From a virus, in the IMG/VR virus record IMGVR_UViG_3300044856_000229, positions 1-64,000 of that record: a DNA stretch of 64,000 nucleotides; one strand, given 5' to 3'. A model generated the notes under the pieces. That model searched no databases. It had not been told where the DNA came from and was given only the letters and a program-made list of their open reading frames with translations. The translations under genes were made by a program, and so were the position numbers. Shown in pieces: positions 59,166 through 59,639 of this stretch. Within the stretch, counting starts at the first letter, position 1; each line of letters opens with the position of its first letter.

Positions 59166-59639
59166 TGATTGCGGAGCGGCAGCAGGTGCGCGAATAAAAA
59201 TATCTTTTTTTAATATTATAACATAATATAAATAATTAATCAATAACTCTCATTAACCTCGCCCGCATCAAAGAACGAGTCTCCGTTTTGGCTTAAAGAA
59301 ACCGCAGGTTTCTTTAGCCTAATGAGGAGACAAGTTTGGGGCGCGCCCTTTTCAAAGGGCGCAAGGGCTTTCCCGCAGTTCACTTTACTCATGGAGAGAG
59401 GCCATATGCTAGGGTGTGGGGCTGGGTGCGCGGTTTCGGGAAAATTAGGCGCCATATGAAATCCGCTAGAAGTAGAAAAAAATCGCCATATGGGGTTCGC
59501 GGGCGGGAATTCGGGCCTTGCCTGTCGTCGGCGGCCCGCCATTATATCACACTTATCACTCCTTTGTCAAACCCTTTTCCGCATTTAATTTCGATTTGTG
59601 CAAAATGACGAAAATAAAATTCAGCATAATGCACAAAAA

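Follow-up and report, generated by a model that had tools for sequence, protein, structure and literature searches.

What is the compact GC-rich island that fills the gap between two convergent open reading frames (ORFs), 58359..59165 on the plus strand and 59671..59979 on the minus strand, in the DNA of an AT-rich virus? The stretch analysed, hereafter the window, is 64,000 nucleotides (nt) long and covers positions 1 to 64,000 of the IMG/VR record IMGVR_UViG_3300044856_000229. The core of the island, 59257-59540, has a GC content of 55.6% and is the top-GC stretch among all 284-nt stretches of the window (mean 0.332, sd 0.056). The original prediction for this locus spoke of more than 55% GC in a genome of 30% GC; the first figure stands for the core and falls to 50.4% over the full interval 59240-59600, and the second was measured at 33.2%. 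The features it listed were all located in the island: GGCGCGCC at 59340-59347 (a single copy in the window), GAATTC at 59507-59512, hairpin arms GGCTTAAAGAAACC / GGTTTCTTTAGCC at 59290-59319 and GCGCCCTTT / AAAGGGCGC at 59343-59362, and GCCATATG at 59401, 59451 and 59485, the sole three copies in 64 kb, all inside 92 nt, when 1.46 would be expected over the whole window. The next-highest GC peaks of the window (25261, 32841, 34671, 40951 and others) are transfer RNA (tRNA) genes called by ARAGORN, so GC peaks mark RNA genes in this AT-rich genome and are a cheap pointer to such genes in AT-rich phage genomes.

The most likely answer is a phage-encoded regulatory non-coding RNA with repeated motifs, of a family that Rfam lacks. 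It is very probable that the island encodes a non-coding RNA of this family; the full explanation, in which an RNA gene on the minus strand yields a trans-acting multivalent platform, we place at a probability of about 0.6. Among the options left by the original prediction, a structured RNA gene gained support from a promoter, a covarying promoter-proximal hairpin and a family in other phages; past the 5' hairpin, the conservation of the island consists mostly of sequence motifs and not helices, which limits that description. A protein-binding array may apply to some of the motifs and is judged secondary.

The promoter, P1, matches the sigma-70 consensus at 12/12 positions in a consensus scan of the minus strand, and its hexamers are unchanged in 4 close relatives in which the spacer differs. 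The GC hairpin begins 2 nt past its -10 box. All 55 distinct hairpin sequences fold, mostly as 27-nt hairpins, with a median z-score of -2.5 against shuffles, and the hairpin end lies 17-21 nt from the first motif in most members (18-20 nt typical). In a model-based alignment of 68 distinct sequences, 9 of the 11 hairpin pairs changed on both sides; both-side changed cells numbered 80 against 38.8 ± 4.6 in shuffles, and the covariation score of 0.238 (0.092 ± 0.012 shuffled) was reached by 0 of 500 shuffles. Controls with the pairing partner slid by 1-3 columns gave covariation of at most 0.071, and a plain MAFFT alignment returned the same picture.

The family was reached through homologs of the neighbouring 268-amino-acid (aa) protein and then through a conserved downstream promoter. 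Homologs of the protein (38-85% identity) led to contigs with an equivalent intergenic region, which repeats the promoter, the GC hairpin, GAAUU and CCCAUAUG motifs with little overall identity to the window, and the downstream-promoter scan of viral and metagenome collections turned up numerous further loci that have the RNA upstream. Iterated nhmmer brought the total to 62 distinct members, with one copy in the window, drawn from IMG/VR, rumen and gut metagenomes, Logan assemblies and contigs of metagenome-assembled genomes (MAGs). Homologs range from 110 to 300 nt in length. Exact-pattern scans of IMG/VR with 16-18-mers of the island and with the triple-motif pattern returned only three near-identical relatives and chance matches. 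A covariance model (R1), built from 38 members with the window's clade left out, matches 59473-59540 on the minus strand end to end (64.3 bits, E=1.2e-15), and the next match in the window has E=0.022. That next match, at 62698-62744 on the minus strand, is a second unit of GC hairpin and GAAUUC without YAUAUG motifs; a perfect sigma-70 promoter on the plus strand (-35 at 62680-62685, -10 at 62704-62709) reads into its hairpin.

The genomic setting is also shared. In 17-21 other loci, homologs of the window genes 60673..61071 and 61127..61522 are found upstream of the RNA and on its strand, and about 20 of 39 loci carry a gene for a small acidic protein after the downstream promoter, on the same strand, which is missing from the window. 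The RNA-bearing phages are large, with related contigs of 100-200 kb from gut and rumen, and several RNA-bearing contigs also encode the window's DUF2828 protein. A direct search with the RNA pattern added seven more members. These lie in MAG contigs whose assigned taxa disagree (Acutalibacteraceae, Eubacteriales, Faecalimonas, Treponema, Bacteroidales), and the contigs are probably phage sequences that were binned wrongly. Promoter type, Shine-Dalgarno use and a lysin with SH3 and NlpC/P60 domains suggest a Firmicutes host.

Among close relatives the RNA is 94-96% identical, and the flanking genes are mostly 75-93% identical or replaced. An exception is locus L193, where the 268-aa gene is 99.6% identical and the RNA only 95.2%, with the differences clustered in the variable patch, the linker and the motif 3 region. 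Canonical intrinsic terminators follow the RNA in loci L185 and L067 and thereby support a discrete RNA. The features of the window locus are as follows.

59541..59570, minus strand: promoter P1 from the consensus scan, with -35 TTGACA at 59570..59565, an 18-nt spacer with TG extension and -10 TATAAT at 59546..59541.
59512..59538, minus strand: 27-nt GC hairpin CGGGCC-GCC-GACGACA-GGC-AA-GGCCCG.
59493..59511, minus strand: linker GAAUUCCCGCCCGCGAACCCC, including an EcoRI-like GAAUUC and spanning the hairpin-to-motif gap.
59476..59492, minus strand: motif 1, made of CAUAUG (59492..59487), GCGA and U7 (59482..59476), with AUAUG invariant in the alignment.
59463..59475, minus strand: conserved block CUACUUCUAGCGG.
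59453..59458, minus strand: motif 2, CAUAUG, which is CAUGUG in one relative.
59433..59444, minus strand: conserved block UUUUCCCGAAAC, with UCCCGWAA family-wide.
59414..59423, minus strand: 10-nt hypervariable patch, whose position matches a variable hairpin of other members.
59391..59408, minus strand: motif 3, CAUAUG (59408..59403), overlapping a small hairpin AUGG-N7-CCAU at 59391-59405.
59378..59390, minus strand: GAGUAAAGUGAAC block of G-W-G-UAAAG type, like blocks after YAUAUG in other members.
59343..59362, minus strand: hairpin GCGCCCUU-UGAA-AAGGGCGC (GCGCCC...GGGCGC), holding the GGCGCGCC site and found only in close relatives.
59270..59331, minus strand: long hairpin GUCUCC...GGAGAC (59331..59279), predicted in folds, then UCGUUCUUU.
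59215..59243, minus strand: downstream promoter P2 from the consensus scan, TTGATT-17-TATAAT with TG.
59240..59542, minus strand: spurious ORF of 100 aa, beginning inside the -10 box.
59336..59608, plus strand: spurious ORF of 90 aa, crossing the island.
58359..59165, plus strand: gene for the 268-aa protein, flanking the island.
59671..59979, minus strand: gene for a 102-aa protein, flanking the island, with its own terminator at 59641-59663.

Given this layout, transcription would start at about 59534-59536. In the linker, CGCCCGC (59499-59505) could pair with GCGGGCG at 59260-59266, and changes in L014 and L193 fit this pairing, with only 5 close sequences, too few to serve as a test. Motif 1 is followed by CUUCUAGCG and a second YAUAUG, then by UUUUCCCGAAA, a variable segment and the third YAUAUG. 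CUUCUAGCG is found in most main-subfamily members and once in the window, and UCCCGWAA occurs twice in the window, one of the two in block UUUUCCCGAAAC. The CAUGUG variant of motif 2 would still permit G-U pairing. In the motif 3 hairpin the stem is kept and the loop varies in 4 relatives, with CAUAUA in one relative; the stem of the hairpin at 59343..59362 is invariant among close relatives, with one loop base G or A. All 62 nt of 59270..59331 are invariant among relatives, and this long hairpin with its U-rich tail near 59270 is the probable 3' end or terminator of the window RNA, which could instead lie at about 59257 if 59499-59505 pairs with 59260-59266. Five phages with 95-100% identity in the rest of the RNA differ at most positions of the patch at 59414-59423, with identical sequence on its flanks; relaxed constraint, diversifying selection or recombination may account for it.

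AUAUG of motif 1 is invariant in a MAFFT alignment of 35 sequences, and the consensus of the motif is CCCC-YAUAUG-S-AAAW-UUUUY with a U run of 5-7. Across 9.9 kb of family sequence (59 members) CATATG was counted 131 times where composition predicts 2.2, an approximately 60-fold enrichment, with 2-3 copies per RNA. The only common variant has U at position 1: 16 copies of TATATG stand against a single copy of the reverse complement, CATATA (p=2.7e-4; 59 members), where 6 of the 16 are anchor motifs picked with a variant-allowing pattern and the count without them is 10 vs 1. This bias implies that the motif is read strand-specifically, on the promoter-sense strand, since a symmetric DNA palindrome would lack it. 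Both the U1 variant and G4, seen in one relative, keep the RNA hexamer self-complementary through G-U pairs. The sense strand also folds better than the antisense strand in 37 members against 20 among the 57 with a difference (p=0.015). Promoter orientation, motif-variant asymmetry and sense-strand folding thus point to the minus strand as the one that would be transcribed. We considered motif 1 as a general phage promoter and rejected it, as it does not stand upstream of other window genes. The only other cluster of three CATATG in the window, at 23118-23199, lies inside the ORF of the SH3 and NlpC/P60 lysin (22900..24414) and is probably due to chance.

The island does not code for protein, as the original prediction had supposed in calling its ORFs spurious: the 100-aa ORF loses its frame to a 2-nt indel in close relatives, no ORF is held in common with distant family members, and none stays in frame among relatives. 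Half of what the original prediction named as its refutation was seen: homologous islands do exist in related phages, but they lack coding potential. Comparison with known RNAs gave no name for the element. In a scan of the whole window at the gathering threshold, no Rfam 15 family (tRNA, tmRNA, 6S, CsrB/Rsm, pRNA, GOLLD, ROOL, Y RNA-like, riboswitches and others) matched over the RNA, a permissive scan of 59100-59750 returned only chance-level matches at E<=10, and none was found over the RNA in 16 other member loci; ARAGORN called no tRNA or transfer-messenger RNA at the island. In the literature we found no account of this RNA, where unnamed candidates of microbiome-wide screens were not compared by sequence, and it may be among the thousands of such candidates (PMC8040213 is one example of such a screen). 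Two matches elsewhere are of separate interest: a tetrahydrofolate riboswitch aptamer (RF01831, 76.7 bits, E=3e-16) at 2904-3003 of the related phage contig L097, and an Rfam tRNA match of 138 nt at 35143-35280 on the minus strand of the window (46.7 bits), uncalled by ARAGORN, which may represent a tRNA gene interrupted by a long insertion or intron.

How might such an RNA act? In the explanation we favour, host RNA polymerase would make a non-coding RNA of about 265-285 nt from the minus strand early in infection; the 5' stem-loop would stabilise it, and it would terminate at the long hairpin with the U-rich tail near 59270. The RNA would then act in trans as a multivalent platform, whose 2-3 exposed YAUAUG(S) hexamers and other single-stranded blocks may bind and titrate a host or phage RNA-binding factor, in the manner of CsrB/RsmZ-type sponge RNAs. 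Alternatively, the YAUAUG(S) hexamers could pair with each other. A trans role is favoured because the RNA is strongly constrained while facing a convergent gene, in the window's clade and in two more distant clades; because the downstream genes have a separate promoter; because some members have their own terminators; and because motif copy number varies in homologs of different length, as in the protein-titrating CsrB and RsmZ RNAs. A convergent gene after the RNA, in the window and in relatives, also means that the RNA is not a leader for a downstream gene there. The decoy or scaffold mechanism specifically is a tentative proposal. The 268-aa neighbour was considered as the cognate binding protein or initiator and rejected, the gene being absent from most member loci and from L002. 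Its product has no Pfam or PHROG family, and its AlphaFold2 model (predicted local distance difference test score, pLDDT, 76) had no Foldseek match in the PDB at E<=0.001 (best E=0.07).

Several observations weigh against this explanation. RNAalifold gave no consensus structure on the 35-sequence alignment and an all-against-all column screen found no covarying helix past the 5' hairpin, so that the term structured RNA rests on one helix and the motifs. Transcript, transcription start and 3' end are all deduced from sequence. A strict consensus promoter lies no more than 150 nt upstream in just 21 of 58 members; many of the remainder carry extra upstream units (hairpin, GAAUUU, AT-rich segment) with the promoter farther up. 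Many relatives lack a terminator between the RNA and the next promoter and gene, and in these a cis role is possible. A search for antisense targets within the window found only chance matches of 10-12 nt, and no binding partner for the RNA was identified. G-U and A-C counts in the hairpin columns (27 vs 20, not significant) do not tell the strands apart. Some of the motifs are DNA palindromes (CATATG, CGATCG, GAATTC). An octamer, CCGAYCGG, occurs 3-5 times in other members and is found next to promoters outside the RNA as well; its copies vary together inside one genome, which hints at operator sites recognised by a DNA-binding protein that co-evolves with them.

Among the rivals, an unlikely one holds that the element is a cis-acting leader, the 5' part of early transcripts that works as an attenuator, a processive antiterminator of nut or put type, or a regulator-bound hairpin of Aca type. 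It would account for a hairpin that begins 2-18 nt past the -10 box in members, for the recurrence of promoter-proximal GC hairpins in the early region (60097-60128 and 62698-62744), for GUUUU or GAUUUU after the hairpin in some members and for the boxB-like hairpin GCGCCCUUUGAAAAGGGCGC in the window. It also has a published precedent in Aca1 and Aca2, whose target hairpins lie immediately past the transcription start (PMC13551039). In about 20 of 39 loci the next gene is co-directional, often with no terminator between; yet it is convergent in the window, L001, L032 and L037, where the RNA is highly conserved all the same, the downstream genes are served by the separate strong promoter P2, and L185 and L067 terminate canonically after the RNA. 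A nut, put or Aca site, moreover, needs far less than the roughly 130 nt of conserved body, with its three repeats of the motif, seen here.

Promoters of this early region are of note in themselves. The P2 type is conserved past its hexamers, spacer and first transcribed bases included (TTGACttttATAAAAAAATATGwTATAATATTAAAAAAAG), and recurs in many gut and rumen phage contigs (L046-L185), where it is often found as tandem copies and may point either with or against the RNA. Two further tandem promoters with 12/12 matches lie at 59991-60161 on the minus strand. The first, 60161..60133, is followed within 5 nt by a hairpin, CCGGCCG...CGGCCGG, with U5 that resembles a terminator or attenuator close to the promoter; the second, 60019..59991, drives the 102-aa gene.

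Less likely still is an element that works at the level of DNA: an array of binding sites (YATATG, CCGAYCGG, GAATTC) forming an operator cluster, a replication origin or a partition site by an AT-rich stretch, with transcription incidental or activating. Several motifs are indeed palindromic hexamers or octamers, the octamer before motifs 1 and 3 changes in concert and also stands beside promoters outside the RNA, and the island adjoins the AT-rich P2 region and, in the window, the unannotated 268-aa gene with a repeat-rich non-coding region of 1 kb. The hairpin, however, shows compensatory changes, of which double-stranded binding sites have no need; the orientation to the promoter is fixed, and the motif variant is strand-asymmetric (TATATG 16 vs CATATA 1). 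CGATCG occurs nowhere in the window and so is not a site of this member; the 268-aa gene is missing from most member loci and L002, and its protein is without a recognisable DNA-binding family or fold match. As for an iteron or operator array, the repeated motifs are present and no binding protein is conserved alongside the member loci. The non-coding region in question, 57335-58359, lies upstream of the 268-aa gene and runs for about 1 kb without an ORF of at least 80 aa. It is dense in direct repeats (74 nt twice at 99% identity; 56 nt three times) and inverted repeats of iteron- or operator-like character. Most related phages have neither this region nor the 268-aa gene, so that the two look like an insertion that separates P2 from the early genes downstream.

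It is improbable that the RNA is instead a self-associating scaffold, with YAUAUG and the CCGAUCGG octamers of other members pairing between molecules, or a partner of the unusual proteins of this clade. The partner version would involve proteins resembling the major vault protein, flotillin-like SPFH, DUF2828/DUF7788 and RNA ligase proteins and, if true, would make the RNA part of a phage counterpart of vault or Ro-type ribonucleoproteins. In the window we observed an 825-aa protein with the shoulder and repeat domains of major vault protein, a SPFH/flotillin-like protein, a DUF2828 and DUF7788 protein and a weak RNA-ligase match; the genes of these proteins lie at 16568-19045, 3683-5224, 20932-22557 and 9183-10565, all on the minus strand. 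In IMG/VR there are 183 relatives of the DUF2828 protein, most of them on contigs of 100-200 kb, some of which bear the RNA; in the PDB the protein has no sequence match.

Translation of a mini-ORF, with the AUG of motif 1 (59490) starting a short functional peptide such as a leader peptide, is scarcely credible. The peptide in the window would be MAIFFYF followed by a stop (7 codons), with MQIFCYF, MENFCDF and MEFFPYF elsewhere, and the ORF is common in one subfamily. Its AUG is invariant at a fixed 18-20 nt past the hairpin, the main subfamily has UAG exactly 6 codons on, and some differences are synonymous (UUU/UUC, UGC/UGU, CCG/CCC, UCA/UCG). But ACCCC takes the place of a Shine-Dalgarno sequence, whereas the neighbouring genes carry AGGAGG; three members have an in-frame stop at codon 5 or 6 and two have lost the stop, with the conserved nucleotides downstream unchanged; the distance from the AUG to the U run changes by non-multiples of 3; and YAUAUG recurs 2-3 times per RNA without conserved ORFs.

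That the island is artefactual or foreign (left over from a vector, produced by chimeric assembly or recently acquired as GC-rich DNA), a possibility that the sharply different composition and the many restriction-site-like palindromes had brought to mind, is refuted: the same island and context occur in different samples and pipelines (IMG/VR 3300045988 and 3300013901, ENA, Logan SRR31227989), BLAST found no match in INPHARED phages or PLSDB plasmids, and the family is diverged yet syntenic. The island occurs at 94-96% identity in three IMG/VR contigs that come from two metagenomes, and in the Logan assembly SRR31227989 identity is 98.5% over a stretch that takes in the 268-aa gene, P2, island and promoter. 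The last two options of the original prediction are thus unsupported: independent assemblies speak against a cloning or assembly artefact, and synteny in the early-gene region of many related phages speaks against a horizontally acquired fragment.

In this clade of large, uncultured phages from gut and rumen, hardly any of the early region is annotated. A non-coding RNA with a strong promoter and high conservation, present in more than 60 distinct phage sequences, gives a concrete and testable factor of early infection, and the family supplies defined motifs for mutation and a covariance model for finding members. If the RNA titrates a host RNA-binding protein or ribonuclease, it would represent an RNA-based takeover or anti-defence mechanism.

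Finally, the proposed RNA can be set against known systems. ToxI and phage pseudo-ToxI offer a short motif repeated at 34-50 nt and a possible decoy for a host ribonuclease; the units here share only a hexamer and are not near-identical tandem repeats, and no ToxN-like gene adjoins. GOLLD, ROOL and the phi29 pRNA are likewise phage-encoded GC-rich RNAs, with a tRNA-gene-rich genome as a further likeness, and self-complementary motifs could give RNA-RNA contacts as in these oligomeric RNAs. The island, in contrast, has no Rfam match, is far smaller than GOLLD or ROOL, lies away from packaging genes and yielded no multi-helix covarying architecture.

The lambda nut and HK022 put sites share promoter-proximal hairpins in early transcripts, and the window RNA has a boxB-like GCGCCCUUUGAAAAGGGCGC stem-loop. 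That hairpin, however, is confined to close relatives, there is no boxA or N-like protein, and the window element precedes a terminator-like hairpin, a separate promoter and a convergent gene. Closer in form are the hairpins in the 5' untranslated regions of acr-aca operons bound by Aca1 and Aca2 (PMC13551039), which resemble the phage RNA in a covarying hairpin right after the transcription start of a strong early promoter and in a conserved AUG about 20 nt after the hairpin. The phage RNA differs in that no ribosome-binding site or conserved ORF follows its hairpin, no aca-like helix-turn-helix gene stands alongside (the neighbours are without Pfam or PHROG annotation) and its body is conserved for more than 130 nt past the hairpin.

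The resemblance to CsrB and RsmZ is a functional analogy only. The motif of the phage RNA is YAUAUG(S) and not GGA in hairpin loops that bind CsrA or RsmA, the RNA is phage-encoded with no known CsrA-like partner, and Rfam has no CsrB, RsmY or RsmZ match to it. What the phage RNA appears to share with these systems is a stand-alone RNA gene with its own strong promoter and several copies of one short motif, a copy number and length that vary among homologs (2-3 or more copies, 110-300 nt), and a conservation that is based on motifs.

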